DNA from: Candidatus Latescibacterota bacterium
Lineage (GTDB): Bacteria > Latescibacterota > UBA2968 > GCA-2709665
Assembly: GCA_965248435.1 (NCBI GenBank)
Contig: OZ252100.1
Location: 1,120,001 to 1,184,000, forward strand
Length of the DNA stretch: 64,000 bases
Direction of reading: 5' to 3'
Below are positions 1 to 57,632 of the stretch, one piece after another. Each line of letters starts with the position of its first letter. Position 1 is the first letter of the stretch. A model generated the notes under the pieces. The model made no database searches, was not told where the DNA came from, and saw only the letters and a program-made list of their open reading frames with translations. Position numbers and translations under genes: made by a program.

Positions 1-75
1 TTTCAAGATCAAACGCTTAACTCCGTCAAGACGCAAGCCGGCACATCCAAATCACTCGACCAGAGACCTTTACGC

Positions 76-791
76 TCACGGAGCAAAGACCTGAACCCGG
101 TTGTTAAACACGTCGGCTACGTAGATTCGACCCTGCGAGTCCAGTGCGATTCCTGCCAGCGACTCGAGACCTGCGTCCACTGGAAAGAAGGGGGAAAGGC
201 CGGAAAACTGAAACACCCCCTCCTCTGTACCGAAATCACCCCACTCGGTGAGTAACTCGCCGTCCGAAAACACTTTCACTTCAGACTGGATCGCGTCGAT
301 CACGAAGATGCGACCATCTTCACTGACGCGGAATCGACGATAAATCCTCGCATCTTCAAGGGCTTCAGACACCCATATGAGATCCTCTGCGACGGCCAAG
401 TTGAAGGCAGCCGAGGGATCCTCGGCCTGAAATCCATATTCTCCAACCCGGATTCGCTCGTGCCCCACCTGGGAGCAGGTCGCCTCTGCAAGCCGGACGA
501 AGAACTCCCGATCATCGGAAACGCCTGCCATAGCCTGCATGTCGACGAAGATGGGAAGAAACCGACACCGAGCCGACCGTTCAGGATCTGGAATAGGATG
601 GATGTCTTCCCGCTCCGCCGTTCGCCGACGAAGAGGAGGACGCACCCCTCAGTTTCCGCGACCAATCGCTAACGGGCATAGGCGAAATCCTCCTCACGCC
701 CGAAGAACAGGTTCGGGTCGCGGACTGGATTGCCCGTGATGAACGGATTCGGGGAAATGGGAGTAAATTCGGTCGTGTCTTCAGATCCCAT
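76..791 (-). pseudogene. Decayed STAND/AAA-type P-loop ATPase N-terminus fused to an NHL-repeat C-terminus
   Basis: ATG at 791 reads MGSEDTTEFTPISPNPFITGNPVRDPNLFFGREEDF, hits an in-frame TAG at 669-671, then Walker A GERRSGKTS. A frameshift near 560 leads into LPIFVDMQ, and the ORF ends in an NHL repeat (GIALDSQGRIYVADVFNNRVQVF). Confidence 0.7.
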
Positions 792-829
792 GGCCAGGCC
801 TTTGCAAAAGCCCCTTTCTGAAAACCAGA

Positions 830-899
830 AGAGCCCAACTGGAATCGATCCCGCCGGGCTCTGTCACATTGCTTATGTATGGTGGCCCCGAGGAGAGTC
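830..899. repeat. att-like site A: hairpin (830-862) plus 18/20 copy of tRNA-Glu 3' end (880-899)
   Basis: tggtggccccgaggagagtc versus tRNA 12953-12972 tggtgaccccgaggggagtc; stem agagccc/gggctct. Confidence 0.75.
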
Positions 900-1001
900 C
901 AAGGGAAAGCAACGCTTAAAGGACTCGTGTATCAGCTAGAAATCCAGCCAACCCGTCTCGACGCCGCACTCCCTCAAGTCATCTCCGCTTCTATTAATCA
1001 A

Positions 1002-1868
1002 TCATACCTCCACAACCATTCCATCATAAGCCAGAACGACGCCCCTCCGGGCCATATCCTCGACAATATCCTCGTGGGGTCCGACCTGCCTCAGGCTGAT
1101 GTGCGAGCCTACGATAGCCGTATCGCTACTGATAATCCCCGCTTGGCTAAGCTCAGAAATGGTGTGTTTAACCATGGAAAAATTCTGGTGCCCGGAGCGG
1201 GCCGGGTCGATCTCTAGATCCCCGAAGGTCGCATCGAATACGGCCAGATCCACCTGAAATCGGCGCAGGTAGTCCAGAGTCAGCGGTAGAATATAAGAGG
1301 AATCCAGGCCGTAAAAAACCGTTTTCCCGCCGCGCTCGAAGACATAATTCAGGGCCCGCTGCTCCCTGATCGTGTACTGCTTGTTGATGCAGTGATTGGC
1401 GTCCACTGCCGTGACCGTGGTGTCCCCAACCTCAAAACGCTCCTCCGGCCGAACCAGGTGGAAGTCGACATTTGGCTCGCTCCTCCGAGCGCAGAACCTC
1501 TTGATGCTCTCCTTCCACTCATAGCTCGCCGCAAACTCCAGAGCATCCCCCACCATCCCGTTGCCGTAGATCTGGAGCGTATGGCGCAGACGAGCGGCAA
1601 ATTCCAGAATGGCGACCGGCTGGAAATGATCCTGGTGTCCGTGAGTGATCAACAGGTGCCGGATCGTATCCCCGTTGACGCCGAATTTTCTTAACTGACG
1701 GTCGTCGTAGAAGTCTATCGAAATGTCTGGGGAAATCATGACAGAGGACGCTCGGCGCAGGTTCTTACCCCCGAGTTGCCGAGCCCGGACCAAGTGCTTG
1801 CTTTGGTCCTCCAGATCGTCCAGGAGGTGGAAATCGCCAGCCCCGGTGCCTAGAAACAGGAGCTTCAC
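1002..1868 (-). CDS. Metallo-beta-lactamase-fold hydrolase (PhnP/RNase Z-like)
   Basis: N-terminal LFLGTGA, THGHQDH motif, later H, D and SH motifs. Confidence 0.85.
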   Translation of the reverse strand: MKLLFLGTGAGDFHLLDDLEDQSKHLVRARQLGGKNLRRASSVMISPDISIDFYDDRQLRKFGVNGDTIRHLLITHGHQDHFQPVAILEFAARLRHTLQIYGNGMVGDALEFAASYEWKESIKRFCARRSEPNVDFHLVRPEERFEVGDTTVTAVDANHCINKQYTIREQRALNYVFERGGKTVFYGLDSSYILPLTLDYLRRFQVDLAVFDATFGDLEIDPARSGHQNFSMVKHTISELSQAGIISSDTAIVGSHISLRQVGPHEDIVEDMARRGVVLAYDGMVVEV

Positions 1869-1934
1869 GCTGTCCTCGAACCGGTCATAGCGCCCGGGCT
1901 CTGCAATCCCGAAACGTCGGCGAACGCAAGGTGC

Positions 1935-3887
1935 TCAAACTGAATGGTCGTCCTCCTTCAGATACTGGCGCAGCCAGTTAATTACGCGCTCGGCCATGTC
2001 CCGTACATGAGCTCGCTCGATGACTCCGTGGGGCTCTCGCGGGTAGACGATCAGCTCGACGGGTATGCCCTTGTCCTTCAGGGCGCGATAGAAGAGATAC
2101 GATTGCTCCACCGGTACGTCTTCGTCCACCTCGCCGTGGAGAATCAGGGTCGGCGTCTGCAGATTGTCGTAGTAGGACAGGGGTGAGAATCGTGTGTATC
2201 GCCCCTCGGCCTCGTAGGGACTGGCCTGGTAGTAGAGCTGGTCCCACGCCGGCAGGCAGCTCTTCCCGTGGAAGCTGAGCCAGTGCGAAATGCCGGCGCC
2301 CATCACCACGGTTCGGAAACGGTCGGTCTGCGACACCGCCCAGGCCGCTATGAAGCCTCCGTAGGACCAGCCGGAAAGGGCCAGTCGATCGGCGTCGGCG
2401 ATACCCGTCCCGATCAGCGAGTCAATACCCAGCATCATGTCCTCGAAGTCCTTGCCGCCCATGTCGCCGAGGTTGCTCTCGGAAAACTTCCGCCCCCAGC
2501 CGACGGAGCCGCGGTAGTTGGGCATGAACACGGCGTAGCCCTCGTTGGCCATCAGCTGGGCCCAGCCGCTGGCGGCGTAGTAACGCGAGCCACTCACACC
2601 GCTCGGCCCTCCGTGCACGCTCATCACCAGCGGGTAGCGCTTGCCGACCTCGTACCCCACCGGCTTTATCAGCAGGCCCTGCATCTTCTCTCCGTCGGCG
2701 CCCATCCATTCGTGGACGTCGGTCTCGCCGATGTCGATATCGGCGCTCTGCGGGTGCAGATTCGTGAGCTGAGTCCACTCGAGGGCGCTGTCCGCCGGGC
2801 GCCCGATCCACACGTCCAGCGGATTTTCGGCGTCCTCCAGCACCACGGCGAGGTCGCCGTTCTCGGCGTGGGAAAAGCGTGGCCAGTTCGCAATGGAGAC
2901 GGCGGCCTGCTGCCACCACAGACTGCTCCGCTCGCCGTCGGCGACACGGATCCGGTAGATCCCCGTGCCGCCCCGCTCGTGACCGATCGTCTGCAGCTCG
3001 CAACCGTCGGGCGACCAGGCCAGCCAGCCGATGCCGGCGACCATGCCCTCGGTGAGGTTGCGCGCCTCCCCTCCGGGCTCGAGCAGCCACGCGTCTCCGG
3101 CCACACACCCCCGATCACTCCAGGTCGAGGAGATGAAGGCCAGTTGCTCGCCGCTGGGCGACCACAGCGGTAGCGCCGCCTGGCACTCCGATTGCCACAG
3201 GGTCTCAACATCGCCGCCCAGATCGAAGCGCACCAGGCGGTTGCCGTACCAGGCGGATTCCGTGGGCAGATCGGACGCCACGGCTGCGATCTCCGATCCA
3301 CTCGGATGCCAGGCGAATTCCCAGATCTGCACCCCCGCCGTCGGTGAGGCACAGCACACTTCCCCTGTCGCCACCTCTACCGTCCACAGCCGCACGTATT
3401 TCAGATTCTGCTCGAAGGTGATAGCGTCGTCTTTGTCTTCGCGCCGCTGTCGCTCCTCGTCGGTCTCCGGGTCTTCCATCAGGAAGCCCAGAGCGCTTCC
3501 ATCCGGCGACCACTGCAGCGCGCTGAGACCTCGCGGCGAGGAGATCTCGCCCTTTATCTCGGTCAGGGCGATGGCTTCGCCGCCGCCGGCCGGGAGCAGA
3601 AACACCTGCCGCTGGCCCTCCTGCAGACGATCGGACAGAAAGGCCACTTGACGGCCGTCCGGCGACCAGCGGGGCAATGAATCGGTCCGCGGTCCGGCAG
3701 TGAGCTGGATCGCTGGCCCTCCCGCTGTACTCACCGTCCAGATGGTGGACCTGGGCCACTTGCTGTCCAACTTGAAGGAATCCCCGACTGTGAAGGCGAC
3801 CCGCGTTCCGTCGGGAGAGATCTGCGCGTCTTCGACACTCTTGAACGACAGTACATCTTCGGTTGTGAGAGGACGCCTTGAAAGCAT
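1935..3887 (-). CDS. S9 family peptidase (acylaminoacyl/dipeptidyl peptidase)
   Basis: PD40/beta-propeller repeats (WSPDG), VHGGP, GWSYGG nucleophile, HGEVDEDV, EPHG triad. Start chosen at MLSRR. Confidence 0.92.
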   Translation of the reverse strand: MLSRRPLTTEDVLSFKSVEDAQISPDGTRVAFTVGDSFKLDSKWPRSTIWTVSTAGGPAIQLTAGPRTDSLPRWSPDGRQVAFLSDRLQEGQRQVFLLPAGGGEAIALTEIKGEISSPRGLSALQWSPDGSALGFLMEDPETDEERQRREDKDDAITFEQNLKYVRLWTVEVATGEVCCASPTAGVQIWEFAWHPSGSEIAAVASDLPTESAWYGNRLVRFDLGGDVETLWQSECQAALPLWSPSGEQLAFISSTWSDRGCVAGDAWLLEPGGEARNLTEGMVAGIGWLAWSPDGCELQTIGHERGGTGIYRIRVADGERSSLWWQQAAVSIANWPRFSHAENGDLAVVLEDAENPLDVWIGRPADSALEWTQLTNLHPQSADIDIGETDVHEWMGADGEKMQGLLIKPVGYEVGKRYPLVMSVHGGPSGVSGSRYYAASGWAQLMANEGYAVFMPNYRGSVGWGRKFSESNLGDMGGKDFEDMMLGIDSLIGTGIADADRLALSGWSYGGFIAAWAVSQTDRFRTVVMGAGISHWLSFHGKSCLPAWDQLYYQASPYEAEGRYTRFSPLSYYDNLQTPTLILHGEVDEDVPVEQSYLFYRALKDKGIPVELIVYPREPHGVIERAHVRDMAERVINWLRQYLKEDDHSV

Positions 3888-4187
3888 GGAAGGTCCCTGT
3901 GTGAAGTTTGAGGAGCAGAGGCTTACGGGCACCCGCTATCTCGGGTCCGTGGGTCAGTTGACGAGGTGGGCGGACTTCATCGACACCCCCAAATATGTAC
4001 AGGGGTACACACGGTAAAACACTGCAGGACGACTGTGTCCCCACCAGTCCCAAAGTGAAGCCCGATCGCACGAGCAAAGCCTGCGACCGGTCACAAAACC
4101 TTCCCCTTTGCTGCGGTCTCTAGGTATCCAACGCAAAGCTCCTTGCAAACCCACTGCCGAACTCTCCGACACGCTCCAACCCGCGCC

Positions 4188-6032
4188 TTACCAGTAGATC
4201 CGCTCTCTCGAGACGAACCGTTCGATCTTCTGCCAGCGGGTGCTGTCGCGTCGATAATGGTCCCGTTGGTACAATGGACAGAGCCGCCCCGGCGGATCGA
4301 TGGCGACCACATCATTGCCCTTCCGCACCAGCGTGAACTTTTCCTTCTCGATCCACACCTCATCGGTCCGCTCCGCAATGGGGAAGGTCATCGTCGCCAC
4401 ATCCCCTGGTTTCACCTCGCCCACCTCCGCATAGCGACCATCCCGACCCACTGGACGATCATTGCCGTTCAACTGCAGTCTCACTTCATCGTGCTTCACC
4501 CACTCCGGGATGCGAATCGACAGCTCTACTGACTCCTTAATTCTCACATCCACCTGCCCTACGTAGGGGACGTGGCTATCAACATCCGCCCAGGGAGAGG
4601 CGCGATTCAGAAGCAGGTTCAGCCGCAACTTGCCAGAATCATGGGTCAAGATATTCTCCCACACGTAATAGAGGGCTCGACTGCCGGTTCCCGTGCAGCA
4701 GTGCATTATACCGTTGCCAACGCCTTCGTACCAGTCGTTGGCCTTGGGCCATCCTCCAAAGGCGCCGATGTTTCGCTCTATCACCCGCTCCGTGGTTTGA
4801 CCCATCGGATCCACTTCCGAGCGGGGCTGTCCCGCCGAATAGCGCCTGAGCCAATCGCCCTTCGCGGGCGTCAACTGCATTTCCACGAGCATGTTCCGCA
4901 CCCAACGATCCACGTCGTCGAGATAGTCTCCCACACCGGCCTCGGTCAGCTTCAGGCCCAGGGCGATCATGGTGGCCACCTCACAGATCTCGGAATGCTG
5001 CAGGTGCGGTGATCCTATAGTCTCCGGGAAATACCCGGTGAGCATTTCGCCGTTGGCCATGCCGTACTGAAAACCCCGGTGGGCGAAATCGATCATCTCC
5101 TGGTCTCCGCTGAGCATGCCATACTCCAGCATGGCCTGCAGACCGATGGCATGGTGATAGAAATGAGCTGTCGGTCTTTCCAAGGGACGGTCGGGCAAGA
5201 AGGTGCCGTCTGGAGCGAAGTGGTTGTTATGGTCCTTCAAATGGCGGCACAACTTGCCTGCCAGTTCCAGGGCCGGCTCGTAGTTCAGGGCCCGATACGC
5301 CTGCGCCAGCCCCACGGCGACCCAGCCGCCAAAGCTGCCCAGAAACGGACCGGGTATTTCTGCGTTCGGGTCTGTCTCCTCTCCCGGCAGAAAAATCGCC
5401 TGTGGGCAGTAAGCGTAATCTTCTCGCTCGATGGCACGCGCAGCCAGGGCATCGACCAGACGCTCGACAACCGACCGCCATACGTCACTACTGTCCCGAA
5501 GCGCGTAGAGGCTCAACGCACCCAGGGCACATCCGCAGTCAGCGGGAAGGGTAAGATGGTCCGCAGCCAAAGTGCGCTCGAGGTCATCATACTTGTCCAG
5601 ACGAACACGTGCCCACGGCCGGCCCCTTGTGGGCATGTAGAGCAGGCCGTCCGGCCCCTGCATGCGCAGGATCACCTCCATCCAGCGCCGCTCCACGTGC
5701 TCGTTCACGTCCGAGCCGCTCACGAGACGCACGAGTTGAAGCGACTCCATGAACTTCCACTGATTTTCGTGATCCCAGCATTGGTGCCGCATCATCGGCG
5801 GATTATGATTCAAGGTGGCGAGGAAATACAGTTCATAATCCGCGTCTGGATCGGTGGGGCCGGTGAGCCCACTTACCGCGAGTGCGGCCCGCTCCTGAAG
5901 ATCCAGGGTATCCGGCACCTGCGCCTCGTAACGCTCCCCGTTGCGGGCGGGAAGCTGAAACTCGGGGATGTCCGGACGGATATAAGCTATGGGGTCCCCT
6001 TGCCTCAGTTGCGTATTAGGCCTATCGCTCAT
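4188..6032 (-). CDS. GH127/GH146-like (beta-L-arabinofuranosidase-like) glycoside hydrolase
   Basis: SEICEVA and HCCTG metal/catalytic-type motifs, LSIRIPEW C-terminal beta domain; RBS gaggagggg before ATG 6032. Confidence 0.7.
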   Translation of the reverse strand: MSDRPNTQLRQGDPIAYIRPDIPEFQLPARNGERYEAQVPDTLDLQERAALAVSGLTGPTDPDADYELYFLATLNHNPPMMRHQCWDHENQWKFMESLQLVRLVSGSDVNEHVERRWMEVILRMQGPDGLLYMPTRGRPWARVRLDKYDDLERTLAADHLTLPADCGCALGALSLYALRDSSDVWRSVVERLVDALAARAIEREDYAYCPQAIFLPGEETDPNAEIPGPFLGSFGGWVAVGLAQAYRALNYEPALELAGKLCRHLKDHNNHFAPDGTFLPDRPLERPTAHFYHHAIGLQAMLEYGMLSGDQEMIDFAHRGFQYGMANGEMLTGYFPETIGSPHLQHSEICEVATMIALGLKLTEAGVGDYLDDVDRWVRNMLVEMQLTPAKGDWLRRYSAGQPRSEVDPMGQTTERVIERNIGAFGGWPKANDWYEGVGNGIMHCCTGTGSRALYYVWENILTHDSGKLRLNLLLNRASPWADVDSHVPYVGQVDVRIKESVELSIRIPEWVKHDEVRLQLNGNDRPVGRDGRYAEVGEVKPGDVATMTFPIAERTDEVWIEKEKFTLVRKGNDVVAIDPPGRLCPLYQRDHYRRDSTRWQKIERFVSRERIYW

Positions 6033-6304
6033 GGCATTGTCCCCTCCTCTTTTTCGTCTCCCGTAAATTAAAAGTATCTTTAAATCTAACGACTCATCGG
6101 GCAAACAACGGTGGAACCGACTGTATCCTTGAGTATGGAAAATGGCTGCCGCAACGACGGAGATCGAGGGTCTGATAGTGGGCTTCGCCACGTGTTTCGA
6201 GCCCGACTGTGTCACGCCGGTCGATCTGCGCCTGTATGGAATGCTTATACAATGTACTCCAAATGAATATCACCGAAATCCGCATCCTCAGGGAGAAAAA
6301 AGGG

Positions 6305-6368
6305 AAAGTCCTGCTGGAATCGAATCCCGCAGGACTTTTAGAGCCTTGTTTTTGGTGACCCCGAGGGG
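6305..6368. repeat. att-like site B: hairpin (6305-6338) plus 16-bp exact copy of tRNA-Glu 3' end (6353-6368)
   Basis: tggtgaccccgagggg; stem aaagtcctgc/gcaggacttt. Confidence 0.8.
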
Positions 6369-6791
6369 TCACGCACAAGTCGCAAACACTTTTGGGGACC
6401 TCTACGCGCTGGAGAAAACGGGCTTCCTGTACGTCGGACCTGCGTGTCGGCAGGCAGCATGAGGCTAGGACTGGATTTTCCGCTCAAAGGAGGGTAGGTA
6501 GCCCCGGTTTCGCAAGCGCACAAAGATAGCCTCCACACGTGCAAATTCCCAGAACAAAAAGGCATCCTCGCGAATTACTACCTCTGAACCGCATTCGCCT
6601 GCACGAGCGACTCACTCCTGATTCGCGTTCCAAGACACACCTTGCAACCCTCATCCTACCTGCATATCTTACCGTAAATTAGTGACTTCATGCTCCGAGG
6701 CTGAAGACGGGACGAACAAATCGGACACCTGTTGAGGGGCACGCTTCGGAGAGAGGTGTGCCCGATTCTCGTGGAGATCTGGCTCTCTTCT

Positions 6792-9700
6792 ATGGTTACT
6801 TCTGTTCGCATATTGCTTGTAGGCTTCTGGATCTCCGGATTTGTCCTCTCAGTCGGAGCTGCGCCGGGGGACATCACCACCGTGGCCGGTGGAGGCGTCG
6901 GCGACGGGCGTCCAGCGACTAATGCGGGCTTGAATGTCCCTAGTAGGCCATTCTTGGATGCGGCGGGCAATCTCTATATCGCGGATACGTTTAATCATCG
7001 GATCCGGAAGGTGGATAGGTCAGGCACCATCACCACCGTGGCGGGAAACGGGTCCGCTGGTTTTTCCGGCGATGGGGGTCCTGCGACCCGTGCAAGCTTG
7101 AATAGACCCTTCGGAGTCTTCGTTGATGAGTCAGGCAATCTCTACATTGCGGATACGGACAATCACCGGATTCGCAAAGTAGATGCGTCGGGCATCATTA
7201 CCACCGTGGCAGGAACTCTCTTCTTTGGTTTTTCCGGCGATGGGGGTCCAGCGACCCGCGCAAGCTTGAATAGTCCTAACGGAGTCTCCGCGGATATGGC
7301 GGGTAATCTCTATATTGCCGAATTTGAAAATCACCGCATCCGCAAAGTGGATACGTCGGGCACCATCACCACCGTGGCGGGAGATGGGACCGCTGCTTAT
7401 TTCGGTGATGGGGGCCCCGCAACGGATGCGAGTTTGGGTTTTCCTTTTGACGTTTTCGTGGATATGTCAGGAAATCTTTACATTGCAGATACGGGCAATA
7501 ACCGAGTTCGCAAAGTGGATACGTCGGGGACCATCACTACCGTGGCAGGAAATGGGACCCATACTTATTTCGGTGATGGGGGCTCTGCAACGGATGCGAG
7601 TTTGGCTTTTCCTTATGGTGTATTCGTGGATCGTTCAGGCAATCTCTATATTGCGGATACGTTTAATAATCGGATTCGGAAAGTAGATCCGTCGGGCACT
7701 ATCACCACCGTAGCTGGAAGTGGGGACTCCTTTAGTCCTTTAGCCGATATAGGTCGTGCAATTACCTTTAACCTATGGGCGCCCAGAGGGATTTTCGGGG
7801 ACGGATCAGGCAATCTCTATATTGCGGATACGTTTAATCATCGGATTCGAAAGGTAGGCCCAGGAGGTGATATCAGCACTGTAGCTGGAGGTGGTTTTGT
7901 CGGCGATGGAAGTCCGGCGACCCACGCAGGCTTGTTCGGCCCTCAAGGCATATTCGTCGACGGGTCGGGAAATCTCTATATCGCCGATCGGGGAAACAAT
8001 CGGATTCGGAAGATAGATGGGACTGGCACGATCACCACCGTGGCGGGAAATGGAAGGATTCGTTTTCGCGGGGATGGAGGTCCGGCAACCAGTGGGAGGG
8101 TGTGGGAGCCTGGAGGCGTTTTCGGAGATCGATCAGGCAATCTCTATATTGCGGATACGTTTAATGATCGGATTCGGAAAGTAGATCCGTCGGGCACTAT
8201 CACCACCGTGGCGGGAAATGGGAACCCTACATTTTCTAGCGAGGGGGGGCCGGCGATCGGTGCAAGCTTGTTTGGTCCTTCTAGCGTTTTTGTAGATAGG
8301 TCAGGCAATCTCTATATTGCGGATACGTTTAATCATCGGATTCGCAAGGTACATCCCTCGGGCGCCATCACCATCATCACCACCGTGGCGGGAAATGGGA
8401 CCCGTGGTTTTTCCGGGGATGGGGGTCCCGCGATCCGTGCAAGTTTGACTTTTCCTTTCGACGTTTTCGTAGATGGGTTAGGCATCCTCTATATTGCGGA
8501 TAAAGACAATCACCGGGTTCGGAAGGTGGATGCGTCGGGGACGATCACCACCGTTGCGGGAAATGGGATCCCTAGTTTTTCCGGCGATGGAGGCCCGGCG
8601 ACGCGCGCGAGCTTGGTTGCACCCAATAGCCTCTTCGTAGATGGGTCGGGCAATCTCTTTATTGCGGATAGAGGCAACAACCGGATTCGGCGAGTGGAAG
8701 GCATTGCGGCACCTCCCAACTTGGTGGTGGGTGTTTTCGAGCCGCCAGCTCTCGTATCTTCCCTGCCGGGGCTTGGACCTGCTTCTCCGGGTGTAGGGCC
8801 AACGCTTTCCGGTCCGCTTCCCATCCTCGGCCCGGGGCTGAACGATCCGCAGGAGGCGGGCACCATTCGAACTATCGCGGGAGGCGATGTTGGTGATGGC
8901 CGGGGCGCCCTGGAGGCAAACCTCCTTTTTCCAAACGATGTTGTTACCGACCAGGAGGGCAACCTCTACATCTCTAGCGGGAGCAACAACCGGGTGCGCC
9001 GCGTCGATGCCCTCACCGGTCTGATCAGCACCGTCGCAGGAACCGGCATCCGCGGCTTCTCCGGCGACGGAGGCAGCGCCGTAGACGCCAAACTTGCTTT
9101 CAATGTTGGTCTTGCCATCGACAGTGCCAGCAACCTCTTCCTTGCGGATGCCGCCAACCACCGCATCCGCCGGGTAGATGCTCAAACAAGCATTATTACA
9201 ACGGTCGCCGGAACAGGTGAGCCCGGCTTCTCCGGGGATGAGGGACCGGCAGTCAATGCGCAACTTTTGTTCCCGGAGGACATAGCTGTAGATCGCGCAG
9301 GAAATCTTTTCATCGCTGACAGGAGCAACCATCGTGTCCGGATGGTCGATTCATCTACCGGACAGATCGTCACTGTAGCAGGCAACGGGGCCCCAGGGTT
9401 TGCGGGAGACGGAGGGCATGCGCTCGCTGCACAGATAGAAGTCCCCGAGAGAATCGCCGTCGATAATTCGGGAAATCTCTATGTCTCAACGGGCAGCCGC
9501 ATCCGCCGCATCGATGCAAAGACGGGCACCGTGACCACAGTCGCGGGCACTACCACCGGCTTTTCCGGAGACGGTGGCCCGGCAACGGAAGCGCAATTCA
9601 GCGACTCTCAGAGAATTGCTATAGACGCACAGGGCAACATCTTCGTGGCGGATCAGGGCAATCACCGCATCCGGAAAGTCGATGCCCAGAGCGGGATTGT

Positions 9701-11087
9701 CACCACCCTGGTCGGCACAGGTAAGTTGGGCTTTTCCGGAGACGGTGGTCCGGCTGCCCAGGCCCAGCTCTTTTTTCCAGAAGCTGTCGCCTTAGACAAC
9801 AAGGGAAGCCTGTTGATTGCAGACCAAGGGAACAGTCGCATTCGAAAGGTGGTCCTTCGAACAAACACCATCACTACTGGAGCGGGCGGGGGTGTAGGCG
9901 ATGGACGGCCCGCATTACAGGCACAGCTTGGCTTTCCGAGGCACATCGTTCTGGATGACTTGGGCAATCTCTACATTGCAGACCGCAGCCATAACCGCAT
10001 TCGAAGAGTCGATGCGAAGACCGGACTCATCAGCACGATCGCAGGTACAGGTATTCGCGGATCTACGGGAGACGGTGGACCGGCCACAAGCGCCCTGATT
10101 GCATTTCCATTCGGCCTGGCCGTAGATCGTGCAGGAAACCTGTTTATTTCTGATTTCGAAAACGACCGCATCCGGAAGACCGATCTCAAGACAGGCATCA
10201 TCGCAACGGTTGCAGGAGCCGATACAGCAGGGTTTTCCGGGGACGGCGGGCAAGCTGTGCAAGCTCAACTCGACGATCCATTAGGCCTCGCTCTCGACAG
10301 TGCCGGCAACCTCTTCTTTGCAGATGCCGAGAACCACCGTGTCCGGCGTGTGGATACGAAAACCGGTGTGATTACCACCATTGCAGGCACGGACACGGAA
10401 GGACTCTCAGGAGATGGCGGTCCAGCGACAGCGGCGGCCTTGTTGCATCCCCGGGATGTGGCCGTGGACGCCGCAGATAACCTGTTTATCGCGGATACTT
10501 TCAACGACCGCATCCGGAAGGTCGATCTCAAGACAGGCATCATTACAACGGTTGCAGGAGCCGATACAGCAGGGTTTTCCGGAGACGGCGGGCCCGCTGT
10601 GGAGGCTACACTTAGTTTTCCATCATCCATTGCTCTGGATGCCAAAAGTAACCTGTTTATAGGCGACCTTGGCAACGACCGTATCCGGAAGGTCGATGCC
10701 AGCACGGGCATCATAAGCACGGTTGCCGGCAGCGGGACACGCGGATTTTCCGGGGACGGCGGGCCTGCTACCAAGGCGGCCTTTTTGGGGCTCTGGGGGG
10801 TAGCGATCACGCCTTCGGGAGACCTCCTGATCTCCGATGCCACCAATCATCGAATCCGTCGTGTAGCGGGCATCGCTGCGCCTACGACGCATGGGGATGC
10901 CGTGGTTAAGACTTCCGATTTCAACGGAGATGGAACGGTAAACTTTGAGGATTTCCTTGAATTTGCGCAGAATTTCAGCAAGAACCAGAGCGATCCGGAT
11001 TTCGACGCGACGTATGATCTAAACGACGACGGGGAGGTGAATTTCATGGACTTTTTCCAGTTTGCCCAGGCCTTCGGTCAGGCCTGA
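6792..11087 (+). CDS. Secreted NHL-repeat (beta-propeller) protein with C-terminal dockerin/EF-hand-like domain
   Basis: Signal-peptide-like N-terminus from ATG 6792; >20 repeats of ~56 aa (GNLYIADTFNHRIRKVD...ITTVAG...GFSGDGGPA); Pro-rich linker; DFNGDGTVNFEDF...DLNDDGEVNFMDF. Confidence 0.92.
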   Translation: MVTSVRILLVGFWISGFVLSVGAAPGDITTVAGGGVGDGRPATNAGLNVPSRPFLDAAGNLYIADTFNHRIRKVDRSGTITTVAGNGSAGFSGDGGPATRASLNRPFGVFVDESGNLYIADTDNHRIRKVDASGIITTVAGTLFFGFSGDGGPATRASLNSPNGVSADMAGNLYIAEFENHRIRKVDTSGTITTVAGDGTAAYFGDGGPATDASLGFPFDVFVDMSGNLYIADTGNNRVRKVDTSGTITTVAGNGTHTYFGDGGSATDASLAFPYGVFVDRSGNLYIADTFNNRIRKVDPSGTITTVAGSGDSFSPLADIGRAITFNLWAPRGIFGDGSGNLYIADTFNHRIRKVGPGGDISTVAGGGFVGDGSPATHAGLFGPQGIFVDGSGNLYIADRGNNRIRKIDGTGTITTVAGNGRIRFRGDGGPATSGRVWEPGGVFGDRSGNLYIADTFNDRIRKVDPSGTITTVAGNGNPTFSSEGGPAIGASLFGPSSVFVDRSGNLYIADTFNHRIRKVHPSGAITIITTVAGNGTRGFSGDGGPAIRASLTFPFDVFVDGLGILYIADKDNHRVRKVDASGTITTVAGNGIPSFSGDGGPATRASLVAPNSLFVDGSGNLFIADRGNNRIRRVEGIAAPPNLVVGVFEPPALVSSLPGLGPASPGVGPTLSGPLPILGPGLNDPQEAGTIRTIAGGDVGDGRGALEANLLFPNDVVTDQEGNLYISSGSNNRVRRVDALTGLISTVAGTGIRGFSGDGGSAVDAKLAFNVGLAIDSASNLFLADAANHRIRRVDAQTSIITTVAGTGEPGFSGDEGPAVNAQLLFPEDIAVDRAGNLFIADRSNHRVRMVDSSTGQIVTVAGNGAPGFAGDGGHALAAQIEVPERIAVDNSGNLYVSTGSRIRRIDAKTGTVTTVAGTTTGFSGDGGPATEAQFSDSQRIAIDAQGNIFVADQGNHRIRKVDAQSGIVTTLVGTGKLGFSGDGGPAAQAQLFFPEAVALDNKGSLLIADQGNSRIRKVVLRTNTITTGAGGGVGDGRPALQAQLGFPRHIVLDDLGNLYIADRSHNRIRRVDAKTGLISTIAGTGIRGSTGDGGPATSALIAFPFGLAVDRAGNLFISDFENDRIRKTDLKTGIIATVAGADTAGFSGDGGQAVQAQLDDPLGLALDSAGNLFFADAENHRVRRVDTKTGVITTIAGTDTEGLSGDGGPATAAALLHPRDVAVDAADNLFIADTFNDRIRKVDLKTGIITTVAGADTAGFSGDGGPAVEATLSFPSSIALDAKSNLFIGDLGNDRIRKVDASTGIISTVAGSGTRGFSGDGGPATKAAFLGLWGVAITPSGDLLISDATNHRIRRVAGIAAPTTHGDAVVKTSDFNGDGTVNFEDFLEFAQNFSKNQSDPDFDATYDLNDDGEVNFMDFFQFAQAFGQA

Positions 11088-11096
11088 GCAAGGACC

Positions 11097-11175
11097 AGCC
11101 CTGCTGGAATGGATCCAACAGGGCTTCTATCGTCATCAGGTGTTTGCGAGTTCTTTGGTGACCCCGAGGGGAGTC
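11097..11175. repeat. att-like site C: hairpin (11097-11125) plus 20-bp exact copy of tRNA-Glu 3' end (11156-11175)
   Basis: tggtgaccccgaggggagtc is identical to 12953-12972; stem agccctg/cagggct. Confidence 0.85.
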
Positions 11176-11422
11176 CACCGGTATGCAACGCTTGTGATAG
11201 CTCGAAATCCAGCTCTATTGCTGATGGAGCTGCGTGACGCAGCTTAGTCTGGCACCGCCTGATCCGACGTCACTTCAATTCCAGCAATCCCCTCCATAAG
11301 CATCTCTTGGCCGCCGTTCCTCGCCGTCGTATCTTGGGTTGCGATGTGCACCTATGTCACCATCCATAAGACACATTTGCTATCCACTGCTCTTCGCGGA
11401 AAACCAAAGGACGAGCCCAGCC

Positions 11423-12508
11423 ATGGACGAAAACCCTACGGTCAGCACCGTATTCGAGATCGAGCCGCCGGATCCACCCAACGACGGCATCATGTTCGTA
11501 GACCACGCCCGATCGGGCCGTAGTGGCCACCTGGGCCACGCGCTCGTTGAATATGCACCGGGGAAAATCCTGGCGTTCTACTCCAACTGCTCGGATAGGA
11601 ACGACGGACACACGGGGGACGGGTGGATGGAATACCGGCGTTCCGAAGACGGGGGACGAACCTGGAGCGCCGGCGAAGTGCTTGCCTACTCCAAGGCGGT
11701 CTACGACAGGAACGCTGGAAAGTCCGTCATGTGTGAGAATGCCGTGCGAGCCGACGACGGGGCGGTCGTCCTGTTCAACCTGGAGTGCGGGAACACGGCC
11801 GAAGAGAAGTGGGCGTGGGCGCCGCTGGACGTTCCCACGTGTCTTCGCAGTACGGATGACGGCCGTACGTGGGGACCTGCGGAACCGATGGGCGATCAAC
11901 CCGGCCGCATCTGGGATGCGATGGTTCACGACGGCAGCATCCTGGTTCTCGAGCTGTGCAACGACAGCTCGATCCAATGGTACGGCAACCTTCCCGAGCA
12001 CTTCTACGGGCTCTATGCAAGCACCGATCACGGGCGCAGCTTCGCCCTGCGGAGCAAGCTGCCGCTCGAGATCCAGTGTCGGGGCTACGGCGCCCTGTCG
12101 ATTCTCCAAGACGGCGGACTGATCGCCTACGTCTACAACATGGCCGACGAAAAACACCTGGACTACGTCATCAGTCACGACGGCGGCTACACCTGGAGCG
12201 ACGTGCAAACCGCGTTTTTTGAGAAGCAGATTCGAAATCCGCAGATGGCCCGCTTCAAAGGCGGATACGTCCTTCACGGACGGAGCGGAGCCCAGGGAGA
12301 AGGGAGCGGACATTTCGTACTGTATACGTCGGACGACGGCATCCACTGGGACTCGGGACGCTACCTGCGGATGCAGGAGGCGCGCGCCGGCGCATACTCG
12401 AACAATTTACGCGTGCACAGCCCCGATGCACCGGAACGCCTGCTGATCCAGGCTTCCCACGCGTACGAAGGATATATGACGAACATCCTGCACTGGTGGC
12501 TGACTTAG
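11423..12508 (+). CDS. BNR/Asp-box (sialidase-like) protein
   Basis: Five Asp boxes: SEDGGRTW, STDDGRTW, STDHGRSF, SHDGGYTW, SDDGIHW. Confidence 0.85.
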   Translation: MDENPTVSTVFEIEPPDPPNDGIMFVDHARSGRSGHLGHALVEYAPGKILAFYSNCSDRNDGHTGDGWMEYRRSEDGGRTWSAGEVLAYSKAVYDRNAGKSVMCENAVRADDGAVVLFNLECGNTAEEKWAWAPLDVPTCLRSTDDGRTWGPAEPMGDQPGRIWDAMVHDGSILVLELCNDSSIQWYGNLPEHFYGLYASTDHGRSFALRSKLPLEIQCRGYGALSILQDGGLIAYVYNMADEKHLDYVISHDGGYTWSDVQTAFFEKQIRNPQMARFKGGYVLHGRSGAQGEGSGHFVLYTSDDGIHWDSGRYLRMQEARAGAYSNNLRVHSPDAPERLLIQASHAYEGYMTNILHWWLT

Positions 12509-12570
12509 TGGAAGGTCCCACGGGCCTCAGATTTCGCCAGGTCACATGACTCTCGGAGGTCCGATGACTC

Positions 12571-12871
12571 ATCAAATTCACCGACAGCGGCAGCGTGACG
12601 GTGAATGCGGCCACCGAGGACTGGCAACGTCATCGCCGTGTCCGATACCGGCAAGGGCATCCCCTCAGACGAACCACCCACCATCTTCGACGAATACCGT
12701 CAGGCCGAAGGGTCCGAGAGCAGCGTGCAGAAGGGCACCGGGCTGGGGCTGTCGATTACGAAGAAATTCGCGGAGCTGCTGGGCGGGACGATCGGCGTGG
12801 TGAGCGAAGTGGGCAAGGGCAGCACGTTTACGGTGCGGGTGCCGGTTGAGTATGGCGACGGACAATCCTGA
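12571..12871 (+). pseudogene. Histidine kinase HATPase_c fragment, 5'-truncated and frameshifted
   Basis: IKFTDSGSVTVNA in one frame, then VSDTGKGI...GTGLGLSITKKFAELLGGTIGVVSEVGKGSTFTV in another; no H-box or start. Confidence 0.85.
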
Positions 12872-12903
12872 CCGCTGACCTCTGTCTTCTGCTCTCTAAT
12901 CAC

Positions 12904-12940
12904 AAAGGCGCCCCTTCGGTCTGGCCGAAAGGGCGCCTTT
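12904..12940. terminator. Intrinsic terminator-like hairpin downstream of tRNA-Glu (possibly bidirectional)
   Basis: aaaggcgccc...gggcgccttt inverted repeat with A/T-rich ends. Confidence 0.7.
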
Positions 12941-12952
12941 CATTGTCAAAAA

Positions 12953-13027
12953 TGGTGACCCCGAGGGGAGTCGAACCCCCGTTGCCGGATTGAAAGCCCG
13001 GTGTCCTAACCGCTGAACGACGGGGTC
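12953..13027 (-). tRNA. tRNA-Glu(UUC)
   Basis: Reverse complement GACCCCG...CCGGG CT TTC AA TCCGG...GGTTCGACTCC...CGGGGTC A CCA; 75 nt cloverleaf. Confidence 0.95.
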
Positions 13028-54326: not shown

Positions 54327-54402
54327 GGGGCTGTAGCTCAGATGGGAGAGCGCATGAATGGCATTCATGAGGTCAGGGGTTCGATCCCCCTCAGCTCCAC
54401 CA
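54327..54402 (+). tRNA. tRNA-Ala(GGC)
   Basis: GGGGCTG TAGCTCAG...CATGA AT GGC AT TCATG...GGTTCGATCC...CAGCTCC A CCA; G3:U70 pair. Confidence 0.96.
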
Positions 54403-56507: not shown

Positions 56508-57632
56508 CTATTCTATATCCTCTATCCCAATGTCCATCAGCTCAGCGAACTTCCGCATATCTAACGCATTGGAATGATCATAGACGTCCATTACCATCCT
56601 GGGACTAGTGTGGCTTAGCAGGGCTGCTATGGCCTGAGCAGGAGCTCCTTTGGAACTTAGATATGATGAGTAAGTGTGACGAAGAGAATGGAGGGTATAC
56701 TTCTCAGGCAACTCAGCTTTGTTGCGATATCTTCTAAAGGCCTGTGTGACAGAATTCGGTCTTAAAGGCCTGGAAGAATCAGTTTCTGACTTGAACACAT
56801 ACTCCCCAGGCTTTATATCCATCCTTTGGAATACCTTGGCAAGCGGCGGAATAATAGGAATGTCAACAATAACAGGATGATCTTTTCTCTTGGTGATTTT
56901 GACCTTCATCGCCATCTGCTCAAGGTCTATGTCTTCGGATTTTAGCCCGAGTATTTCATTCCTCCTTCCGCCAGTATACAAAACGCCTAGAACGTAATTC
57001 TCAAATGTCCTATTTCCTGCCTTTCTAACTTCTTCCAGCAATTTACTTACTTCATCAGCGCTCATATCATTGTCTTGCCTCTTGATCTGGTTTGGCGTAG
57101 GAACTGAAACTAGCAAGAATGGATTATGTAGTAGGTATCCTGACTTCACAGCCCTGTTCAAAGCTGCATTGACTGAATTATGGTAAATCGCCTGAGTTGC
57201 CCTACTCCTTCCTTCCCTATCCAAAGACTCTCGCCATCGCCTTACATCATCTTCCACAAGATCTTCTAAATAAGCGTCCCCAATCTTGCTGATTACGCTC
57301 TTGAAGGCATTCCTAGTCCCAATCTTTGTATTTTCAGAGTGATTGAATTCATAATCCTGTCTGCGCTGATACTCATCCAAGAATTCTGATAGCCTTTTCC
57401 TCCTCCTTGTTGCTTCTGCCCTCTTATGCAGCATATCAATTGAAAGCCTGCCAACTCTTTCAATCTCACCTCTTTTCGCCTGGGAGAATCTCTTTCGGAA
57501 TAATCGCATCCACTCATCTGCCTCGTCCTTGTCGTCAGTCCCAGTGTCAATTCTGTAGCGCCTGTTGTCCACATCAGTGTAATCCAAAGTATATTTCCCA
57601 TCCAGATCCTTTCGTTTTCTAAGGCTTGCCAT
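56508..57632 (-). CDS. Tyrosine recombinase/integrase
   Basis: N-terminal arm-binding-like segment, YTGGRRNE (R), HSLRH, LLSH, DVY catalytic set intact. Confidence 0.93.
   Translation of the reverse strand: MASLRKRKDLDGKYTLDYTDVDNRRYRIDTGTDDKDEADEWMRLFRKRFSQAKRGEIERVGRLSIDMLHKRAEATRRRKRLSEFLDEYQRRQDYEFNHSENTKIGTRNAFKSVISKIGDAYLEDLVEDDVRRWRESLDREGRSRATQAIYHNSVNAALNRAVKSGYLLHNPFLLVSVPTPNQIKRQDNDMSADEVSKLLEEVRKAGNRTFENYVLGVLYTGGRRNEILGLKSEDIDLEQMAMKVKITKRKDHPVIVDIPIIPPLAKVFQRMDIKPGEYVFKSETDSSRPLRPNSVTQAFRRYRNKAELPEKYTLHSLRHTYSSYLSSKGAPAQAIAALLSHTSPRMVMDVYDHSNALDMRKFAELMDIGIEDIE

Follow-up and report, generated by a model that had tools for sequence, protein, structure and literature searches.

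Recombinase-less cassettes stacked at a tRNA-Glu gene of a Latescibacterota bacterium, probably by large serine recombinases whose genes run across their own attachment site

Why does the 3' end of a single tRNA-Glu gene recur three times in the DNA beside it, and why do two of the reading frames that cross these copies finish in Ala-Ala? The question arises in a stretch of 64,000 nucleotides (nt) of a Candidatus Latescibacterota bacterium (assembly GCA_965248435.1, contig OZ252100.1, positions 1,120,001 to 1,184,000), here called the window; the genome holding it is designated G000 and the contig C1, and positions are those of the window unless prefixed. The answer that we consider probable is that the region contains a tandem array of three cassettes devoid of recombinase genes, produced by large serine recombinases whose own genes span the attachment site of the element (attP), and that integration swaps the C-terminus of the enzyme.

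On the plus strand, the last 20 nt of the intact tRNA-Glu(UUC) gene read TGGTGACCCCGAGGGGAGTC. This sequence, the core, recurs at three sites named A, B and C (Table 1), a fourth copy (12953-12972) being the 3' end of the tRNA itself. All three cassettes delimited in this way are missing from G001, a sister genome of the same genus in which both flanks are syntenic and the segment corresponding to window -4767..12952 is absent. Further, in each of the 20 relatives checked, a single core was found within 20 kb downstream of tRNA-Glu(UUC). Cassette 1 (11154-12975) has a second, core-to-core copy of 1.8 kb with 99.8% identity at G000:C1:5530875-5532696, which lies at the far end of the block at tRNA-Glu(CUC), the first copy being located at tRNA-Glu(UUC). 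Judged by their sequence, these two copies suggest recent movement in trans, and cassette 1, which is bounded by cores on both sides and in which no recombinase of its own was found, may be a cis-mobilizable element. At the second locus, the right-hand core is followed by an arm (L2R, G000:C1:5532674) that is 92% identical to the A-type arm over 62 nt. G001 also lacks ~5.6 kb on the left side of core A (window -4767 to 830; G000:C1:1115233-1120830); this stretch may be a fourth, older cassette with a decayed outer core.

The maker of the array is not encoded within it. No recombinase of any kind was found in positions 1-13000 by Pfam, PF00589 and recombinase homology searches, and no phage genes or repressor were seen there with Pfam. 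A tyrosine integrase was considered for this role and rejected, as 0 of the 16 PF00589 matches of the genome fall in window 1-13000. Interpretation of the cores as decayed whole tRNA pseudogenes was rejected as well, given that Rfam (E-value up to 5) and ARAGORN detect only the intact tRNAs. In the Logan contigs of public reads, which are uninformative for uncovered parts of the sequence, no excision product was seen; the only core-to-core joint present in them (12967 to 895, run X1) corresponds to the paralogous second locus.

When the cores are translated in the same plus-strand frame, site B gives LVTPRGHAQVANTFGDLYALEKTGFLYVGPACRQAA with a stop at 6462, site C gives LVTPRGVHRYATLVIARNPALLLMELRDAA with a stop at 11247, site A gives MVAPRRVQGKATLKGLVYQLEIQPTRLDAA and stays open to 1217 (112 residues), and the intact tRNA gives MVTPRGVEPPLPD followed by a stop. 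A previous sequence-only reading of this DNA had reported these four frames, and all of them translate exactly as it had written. The same reading had pointed to ATL and DAA as residues common to A and C; the letters are indeed there, but ATL corresponds to a DNA motif, GCAACGCT, which 5/5 A/C-type arms carry at a constant distance from the core, and the DAA of site A is internal. What it said about site A did not survive, since DAA is not terminal there and the closest relative of this arm, L2R, stops at ...QLEV. As its sequence reads, site A is a decayed arm at which an Ala-Ala tail is without support. With regard to the remaining two sites, Ala-Ala followed by a stop is found in 1706 of the 283051 stop-to-stop frames of G000 (0.60%), in 718/108976 (0.66%) of those with at least 30 codons, and in 33/3325 (0.99%) of those with at least 300 codons. 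Given this low genome-wide rate, two Ala-Ala ends in two tails are unlikely a priori, although the pattern was chosen after it had been noticed.

Genes that read across the end of a tRNA were found in two families of large serine recombinases. The first is represented in G000 by P0004, a protein of 547 amino acids (G000:C1:5627856-5629499) encoded at tRNA-Glu(CUC/ctc) (5629406-5629481), which reads antisense through the entire tRNA, the same core included, and ends ...RNGDPEGSRTPV...RNW. Matches to this family are present in 13 of the 132 genomes of the class, and nearly all of the 120 listed homologs of P0004 end in tRNA-antisense peptides. Among full-length relatives, all of those examined (10/10) stop inside an antisense tRNA, either Glu, Gln, Asn or Met. 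In these relatives, TTCAGCGA plus 11 nt precedes the tRNA end whatever the reading frame, and it therefore constitutes a site at the DNA level. Among the genes that lie upstream of P0004, ThiF was the sole Pfam match. The second family, LSR2, is ~23% identical to the P0004 family and has relatives in 7 of the 168 genomes of the phylum, in which tRNA-Leu is also read into. A full-length LSR2 is encoded at tRNA-Glu(CUC) in the relative G038, with Resolvase, Recombinase and Zn_ribbon_recom domains; the order of resolvase catalytic domain, recombinase domain and zinc ribbon was confirmed by Pfam in both LSR2 and P0004. The G038 protein finishes ...MVTPRGVEPPFPE, that is, ...IPRTGAALLEANPEGLLDSLGCVSMVTPRG-VEPPFPE, in the MVTPRG frame. 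Recombinase homologs on plasmids and phages showed 35% identity or less. Far-end attachment sites of the second element of G030 and of the elements of G046, G027 and G066 were sought by BLAST, which found none, and by scanning 100 kb upstream (50 kb in G066) for exact matches of at least 10 nt or for matches with at most 4 mismatches in 24 nt, which gave none that was credible.

Remains of such genes are visible beside the cores. A strong hairpin stands 12-30 nt to the left of every core. The left flank of core B, GKVLLESNPAGLLEPCFW followed by a stop, is homologous to the LSR2 end G.ALLEANP.GLL, and tblastn with P0189 and P0190 reaches 6301. The flanks of C, of A and of the second locus, as well as the tRNA-proximal flank of G001, carry frameshifted versions of this LSR2-end stretch. 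Since the hairpins are homologous to LSR2 3' ends, they are best understood as the remains of recombinase genes. Their interpretation as native tRNA terminators was rejected on the same ground, since their DNA is homologous to the part of the LSR2 gene that encodes LL.ANP.GLL, at its 3' end. Hairpin A probably acts as a terminator for the tRNA strand, and we infer that the restored tRNA is likewise terminated by the LL.ANP.GLL coding stretch. The hairpin that closes cassette 1 on the right is of another type, which is also found to the left of two orphan cores in G038. The island-free genome G001 keeps an LSR2-end hairpin beside its tRNA-Glu (L047), and this sequence hints that an element was once there and is now lost.

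The tail at site B shows conservation of the coding type. A homologous B-type arm was found at an orphan core in G037, with 55% identity, no indel over 93 nt and the same stop position, the first indel coming straight after the stop. The two tails are identical at 13/30 residues, and their BLOSUM62 score is 52 in the LVTPRG frame versus 16 and 7 in the other two. In permutations in which the 41 differences were re-placed, this score was reached in 44 of 6474 stop-free trials under a uniform null (p 0.007) and in 164 of 8623 trials under a null preserving the mutation spectrum (p 0.019). The cargo behind the arm differs, being an NHL protein in the window and a DAO oxidoreductase in G037, so that a role as leader of a common gene does not account for its conservation. 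Exact pattern scans for B-type arms gave one match in genome contigs (G037) and none in metagenome or viral contigs; BLAST of the B arm over the 132 class genomes returned only itself at meaningful E-values, G037 being below its reach at 55% identity.

A profile made from the B and G037 tails was then compared by hmmsearch with 1.84 billion representatives (E-value up to 0.001), which yielded 12 matches. Four of them are long proteins with 5-12 matched stretches each (P0180, P0185, P0187, P0188) and were set aside as repeat-protein noise, and the other eight are metagenomic proteins of 39-126 residues with the tail as their C-terminus. Their last four residues are ERAA, ERAA, VGAA, AQAA, AQAA, SLAA, SQAA and ISRV; an Ala-Ala end is thus present in 7/8 clusters (50% identity), and in 11 of the 14 sequences obtained when cluster members are included. 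The residues preceding it vary (RQ, ER, VG, AQ, SL, SQ), and Ala-Ala itself is kept with synonymous codon changes. The cluster ending in ISRV, P0186, shares the window's own upstream junk sequence at the junction and is, on that sequence, a decayed copy of the same site-B junction in close relatives; P0189 carries the B tail of the window at 34/36 residues. Further columns kept across the eight clusters are V, A, N, G, Y, L and F, which compose the module V.VAN.F.GE.Y.L..G.F...AA.

Upstream of LVTPRG, four of these metagenomic lineages are collinear, and in frame, with the last 35-60 codons of LSR2 (Table 1), and therefore the recombinase frame continues through the core into the B tail. One of them, P0184, also matches residues 456-520 of P0042, a recombinase in the LVTPRG frame; a search for the closest relative of P0042 gave nothing above 53% identity and none in viral contigs, and five orphan-core loci gave one fragment. 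The continuity of the frame bears directly on another explanation, according to which the tails would be free-standing micro open reading frames (ORFs) of 31-37 codons that start at an ATG or TTG at the core, are expressed when integrated and have no link to a recombinase. We consider this highly improbable: at several orphan cores, as at A, B and C, GTGACC does follow an ATG or TTG, and P0183 is called as a protein of 39 residues, but the frame extends upstream into recombinase-like sequence in the four lineages, and the start is directly preceded by a strong hairpin, with no sequence resembling a ribosome-binding site in view.

For site C, one homolog of the tail was found, in G038, where the core is decayed and the tail stands beside a longer version of the same sensor kinase gene that cassette 1 carries. 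The last 15 codons read ARNPALLLMELRDAA in the window and LRNPSSLLIKLRDAA in G038, with LRDAA-stop kept via three synonymous changes and a TAG-to-TGA change; their similarity, of the same coding type as at B, has p = 0.012 in the LVTPRG frame, against 0.26 when the other open one is read. Both open frames at site C end in Ala-Ala as a result of the inverted repeat AGCTGCG-TGA-CGCAGCT. A search for A/C-type arms gave matches in 2/132 class genomes (G000 and G038), and one metagenome contig matches this arm type and ends 6 nt after the motif. On this comparison, the site-C tail is probably likewise a relic of an LSR2-type recombinase end.

Alternatively, the tails could be non-coding arms of the attachment site, conserved at the DNA level, in which Ala-Ala-stop would occur by coincidence in GC-rich GCNGCN strings. 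This explanation, which we regard as improbable, draws on the identity of ATL with GCAACGCT and on its mirror counterpart AGCG, which stands about equally far from the core in the arm on the recombinase side (the symmetry being our own reading), on the frame-independent conservation of TTCAGCGA plus 11 nt, on the double Ala-Ala end that the inverted repeat produces at C, and on the frame not being kept in A, L2R (5532674) or G038. At B, however, it conflicts with the indel-free alignment that breaks down right after the stop, with protein similarity specific to one frame, with the synonymous conservation of Ala-Ala in seven of eight clusters, and with a frame continuous with recombinase-like sequence in four lineages. 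Moreover, serine-recombinase sites are usually ~50 bp long (see also PMC1470463), which is shorter than the conserved stretch. For B, these sequence comparisons largely refute the non-coding explanation, and they support the B tail as a coding relic, namely the 3' end of a recombinase gene spanning the attachment site, rather than a chance ORF.

The expectation raised by the sequence-only reading, that a gene reads through the core into the tRNA-Glu 3' end, is borne out by the G038 LSR2 and its MVTPRG-VEPPFPE end. Its broader suggestion that a recombinase or a regulator spanned attP holds for a serine recombinase, in view of the G038 LSR2 and the four lineages, and not for a regulator. The conservation of terminal Ala-Ala that it had put forward as a check is likewise found in part: in 7/8 B clusters and in the G038 homolog of C, and not at site A nor in the tails of the sister family, which end in NA, YR and PA.

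With the integration of these findings, the following sequence of events is proposed. Window 830-12972 consists of three attachment-site-bounded cassettes stacked at the 3' end of tRNA-Glu(UUC). Large serine recombinases would cross over at a core made up of the last 16-20 nt of the tRNA, their own gene running across the site. The inner junctions A, B and C have an attP-like build, passing from a recombinase 3'-end remnant (the hairpin) through the core to the left arm of the next cassette. In an element that is circular or followed by another cassette, the protein would end in an Ala-Ala tail of 24-30 residues; in an element next to the tRNA, the same gene would end after 7 tRNA-antisense codons, VEPPLPD or VEPPFPE, so that integration would swap the C-terminus of the recombinase. 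The B tail, and probably the C tail, would be the fossil last exons of an LSR2-type recombinase in the LVTPRG frame. What the sequences show directly is the array, the recombinase families reading into tRNAs, the frame that continues from recombinase through core to tail in relatives, and the conserved Ala-Ala end; the integration-linked swap finds support at B, probably also at C, and none at A.

Several observations weigh against this account. No LSR2 was found in G000, and an Ala-Ala end occurs in 0/173 recombinase homologs among the matches listed. Tails without Ala-Ala are found in the P0004 family, namely PSESNA in G000 (reconstructed at the distal core), ILYR in G030 (23-nt repeat, 21.8-kb element) and ...VQIPA in G141 (in place), and one LSR2 with a non-tRNA end finishes in IGRR. 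Among the orphan arms of the core, 7/10 are without Ala-Ala in the LVTPRG frame, those that have it being B, its G037 homolog and C. No full-length recombinase bearing the tail was obtained, as the profile matched proteins of 39-126 residues and the four long multi-stretch ones, and a word search for longer tail-bearing proteins found none; clustering, however, would place any full-length copy with the tail together with its integrated twin, and the twin could be the one chosen as representative. Homology to LSR2 begins just 35-60 codons before the core in the ORFs that bear the tail, and by this token these ORFs are probably truncated relics themselves. The codon-position bias of the differences between B and G037 is weak (11/12/19), a shift of one base separates the relic to the left of core B from the LVTPRG frame, and in G038 an indel of 2 nt likewise breaks the frame between the core and LRDAA. 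Strong hairpins stand between every upstream gene and its core, and nothing feeds the tails of the window now. Finally, the ~97 kb from the second locus to tRNA-Glu(CUC) are a mosaic that includes housekeeping-like genes and may therefore not be a single element.

What the terminal Ala-Ala would do is a separate question. By analogy, it could be an ssrA-like signal for ClpXP, a tentative assignment to which we give somewhat less than an even chance; the host encodes clpP-clpX, and its transfer-messenger RNA (tmRNA) tag is ANDNSYAMAA. A further step, slightly less likely still, is that the recombinase senses its own integration: the Ala-Ala form made from the circle or the array would be short-lived via ClpXP, the neutral tRNA-antisense end would stabilise the protein, and the LL.ANP.GLL hairpin would terminate the restored tRNA. 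The conserved columns of the tail beyond Ala-Ala (V, A, N, G, Y, L, F across the eight clusters) lend themselves to another explanation, in which the tail is a working module of the recombinase, fully active in the circle or array form, and the tRNA-ended form is crippled or changed in directionality. That integration of phage Mx8 alters the C-terminus of Int, as worded in the title of a reference cited in PMC4383910, is in line with it. We nevertheless hold a working module to be unlikely, since the tails of the sister family have 4-6 residues, so that such enzymes do not require a long tail, and since a terminal recognition signal would explain an invariant dipeptide at the C-terminus, next to variable residues, better than a fold would. 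The tag and the working module are compatible, and both may hold.

The coordinates of these features, along with the cargo of the cassettes, are collected in Table 1. The NHL protein of 1451 residues in cassette 2 is encoded with DNA repeats of ~168 nt and bears a C-terminal dockerin, and a short NHL fragment is present at 76-645, on the strand opposite to that gene. Orphan 19-nt copies of the core without a tRNA body were observed in relatives, namely G038 (L078, L079), G041 (L080) and G008 (L082). In G141, the P0004-family recombinase (L162, G141:C1:2477523-2482019) runs across a 16-nt partial tRNA end without a tRNA body into a tail of 38 residues ending in IPA; from its sequence, this copy looks array-internal or attP-like, fixed in the chromosome. 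Concerning tyrosine recombinases, the PF00589 match nearest to the array (window 56568-57065, minus strand) belongs to a protein of 392 residues encoded ~2 kb from tRNA-Ala(ggc) at 54327-54402, which probably marks another island in the window. Six near-identical genes for tyrosine recombinases of 314 residues are present in G000:C1 (1448697, 2072009, 3850323, 4651755, 4843473, 5171870), in two score groups of three, which suggests a multi-copy mobile element.

Table 1. Features of the array at tRNA-Glu(UUC), in window positions, followed by the alignments of metagenomic tail-bearing proteins with LSR2.
Feature	Position	Strand	Description
Hairpin A	830..862	-	-22.4 kcal/mol, z -5.0; reads ..SPTGIDPAGL..; aligns with the hairpins of B, C, locus 2 and G001
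Core A	880..899	+	Repeat family D12; degenerate, 18/20 versus tRNA-Glu 3' end
A-type arm	900..947	+	Carries GCAACGCTT; frame open to 1217, antisense to the MBL-fold gene
Cassette 3 cargo	1002..6215	-	Pfam: MBL-fold hydrolase 1002-1868, S9 peptidase 1935-3932, GH127-like protein 4188-6215
LSR2 3' relic and hairpin B	6303..6351 (hairpin 6305-6338)	+	Last ~16 codons, GKVLLESNPAGLLEPCFW-stop; -20.6 kcal/mol, z -5.1
B-type tail	6352..6462	+	LVTPRG plus 30 codons, ends RQAA-stop
Core B	6353..6372	+	Repeat family D12; first 16 nt (6353..6368) identical to tRNA-Glu 3' end
Cassette 2 cargo	6732..11087	+	Pfam and repeats: NHL-repeat protein of 1451 residues with dockerin
Hairpin C	11097..11126	-	Frameshifted LSR2 3'-end relic (GPALLE / DPTGLL); -23.3 kcal/mol, z -5.4
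C-type tail	11155..11247	+	LVTPRG plus 24 codons, ends RDAA-stop; holds GCAACGCTT motif and inverted repeat AGCTGCG-TGA-CGCAGCT
Core C	11156..11175	+	Repeat family D12; 20/20 versus tRNA-Glu 3' end
Cassette 1 cargo	11339..12871	+	Pfam: internally deleted sensor kinase; BNR/propeller part 11339-12508, HATPase_c end 12605-12871
Terminator-type hairpin, cassette 1 right end	12904..12940	-	-30.8 kcal/mol, z -6.2; type differs from hairpins A-C
Intact tRNA-Glu(UUC/ttc)	12953-13027	-	ARAGORN/Rfam; last 20 nt = core
P0184 residues 14-74	LSR2 451-513		51%, E-value 5e-17
P0182 residues 41-96	LSR2 454-512		49%, E-value 1e-16
P0178 residues 1-40	LSR2 473-513		49%, E-value 4e-10
P0189 residues 16-49	LSR2 479-512		62%, E-value 3e-12

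Two serine recombinase families thus target tRNA genes for Glu, Gln, Asn, Met and Leu with genes that run across the site, and ordinary-looking metabolic and sensor genes can stack at a tRNA as cassettes with almost no trace of a recombinase. In the open-access literature, the one precedent that turned up for serine recombinases at tRNA-type sites with site-spanning genes is that of the Dehalococcoides ssrA islands (McMurdie et al. 2011, PMC3146451); this and the following comparisons refer to the accessible parts of the papers cited. The Islander paper (PMC4383910) describes serine integrases as not known to target tRNA genes. The Dehalococcoides islands encode DsiB, a serine recombinase of ~540 residues whose 3' end always overlaps attL, and the paper leaves open the reason for this overlap between the recombinase gene and the attachment site. 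The conserved Ala-Ala alternative C-terminus makes that question of 2011 directly testable.

The likeness to this system is extensive and is one of architecture. In both cases, tandem islands are located downstream of a tRNA-like gene, with direct repeats of ~20 bp of its 3' end and insertion in the T-loop region; the 3' end of a serine recombinase gene overlaps the repeat, which here is the case at tRNA-Glu(CUC), in the 10/10 relatives and in the G038 LSR2, the window holding relics alone; a TTCAG... motif stands beside the repeat; and islands without an integration module are read as cis-mobilizable. Conversely, the targets here are tRNA genes (Glu, with Gln, Asn, Met and Leu in relatives) in place of tmRNA, the recombinases belong to two families sharing ~23% identity, and the six-gene DsiA/RecF/ParB/Mom module was not seen beside P0004. 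Furthermore, DsiB tails are described there as divergent, whereas one tail family is conserved here, with its Ala-Ala end.

Mycobacteriophage BPs (PMC4557955) offers the closest parallel for the proposed switch. In that phage, attP lies within an ORF, the degradation-tag logic of the repressor was shown by experiment, and the integrase has a C-terminal proteolysis signal. As in BPs, attP here would lie inside an ORF and integration would change the C-terminus (VEPPFPE in LSR2 versus a 30-residue tail). Unlike in BPs, where the components are a repressor, a tyrosine integrase and a phage, the split gene would be that of a serine recombinase of cassettes or islands, and degradation, experimental there, is predicted here from sequence. 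If true, this would be a second, independent invention of the BPs logic, a serine-recombinase and non-phage counterpart of integration-dependent immunity, and would provide a built-in timer for an enzyme class widely used in genome engineering.

Other integrases also extend across attP, namely those of Mx8 and SSV (PMC4383910; for the SSV type, also PMC7253208). Mx8 IntP and the SSV-type integrases resemble the system proposed here in having their attachment site inside their own gene, so that the protein is altered or split upon integration; these are tyrosine recombinases, however, and the sections available describe no conserved Ala-Ala end for them. Lastly, as in the accretion of cis-mobilizable elements (PMC3146451), att-flanked segments without recombination genes are stacked at one site; the array at tRNA-Glu(UUC) differs from these in that the enzyme would be a serine recombinase and the sites would be composed of the 3' end of a tRNA and the end of the recombinase gene.

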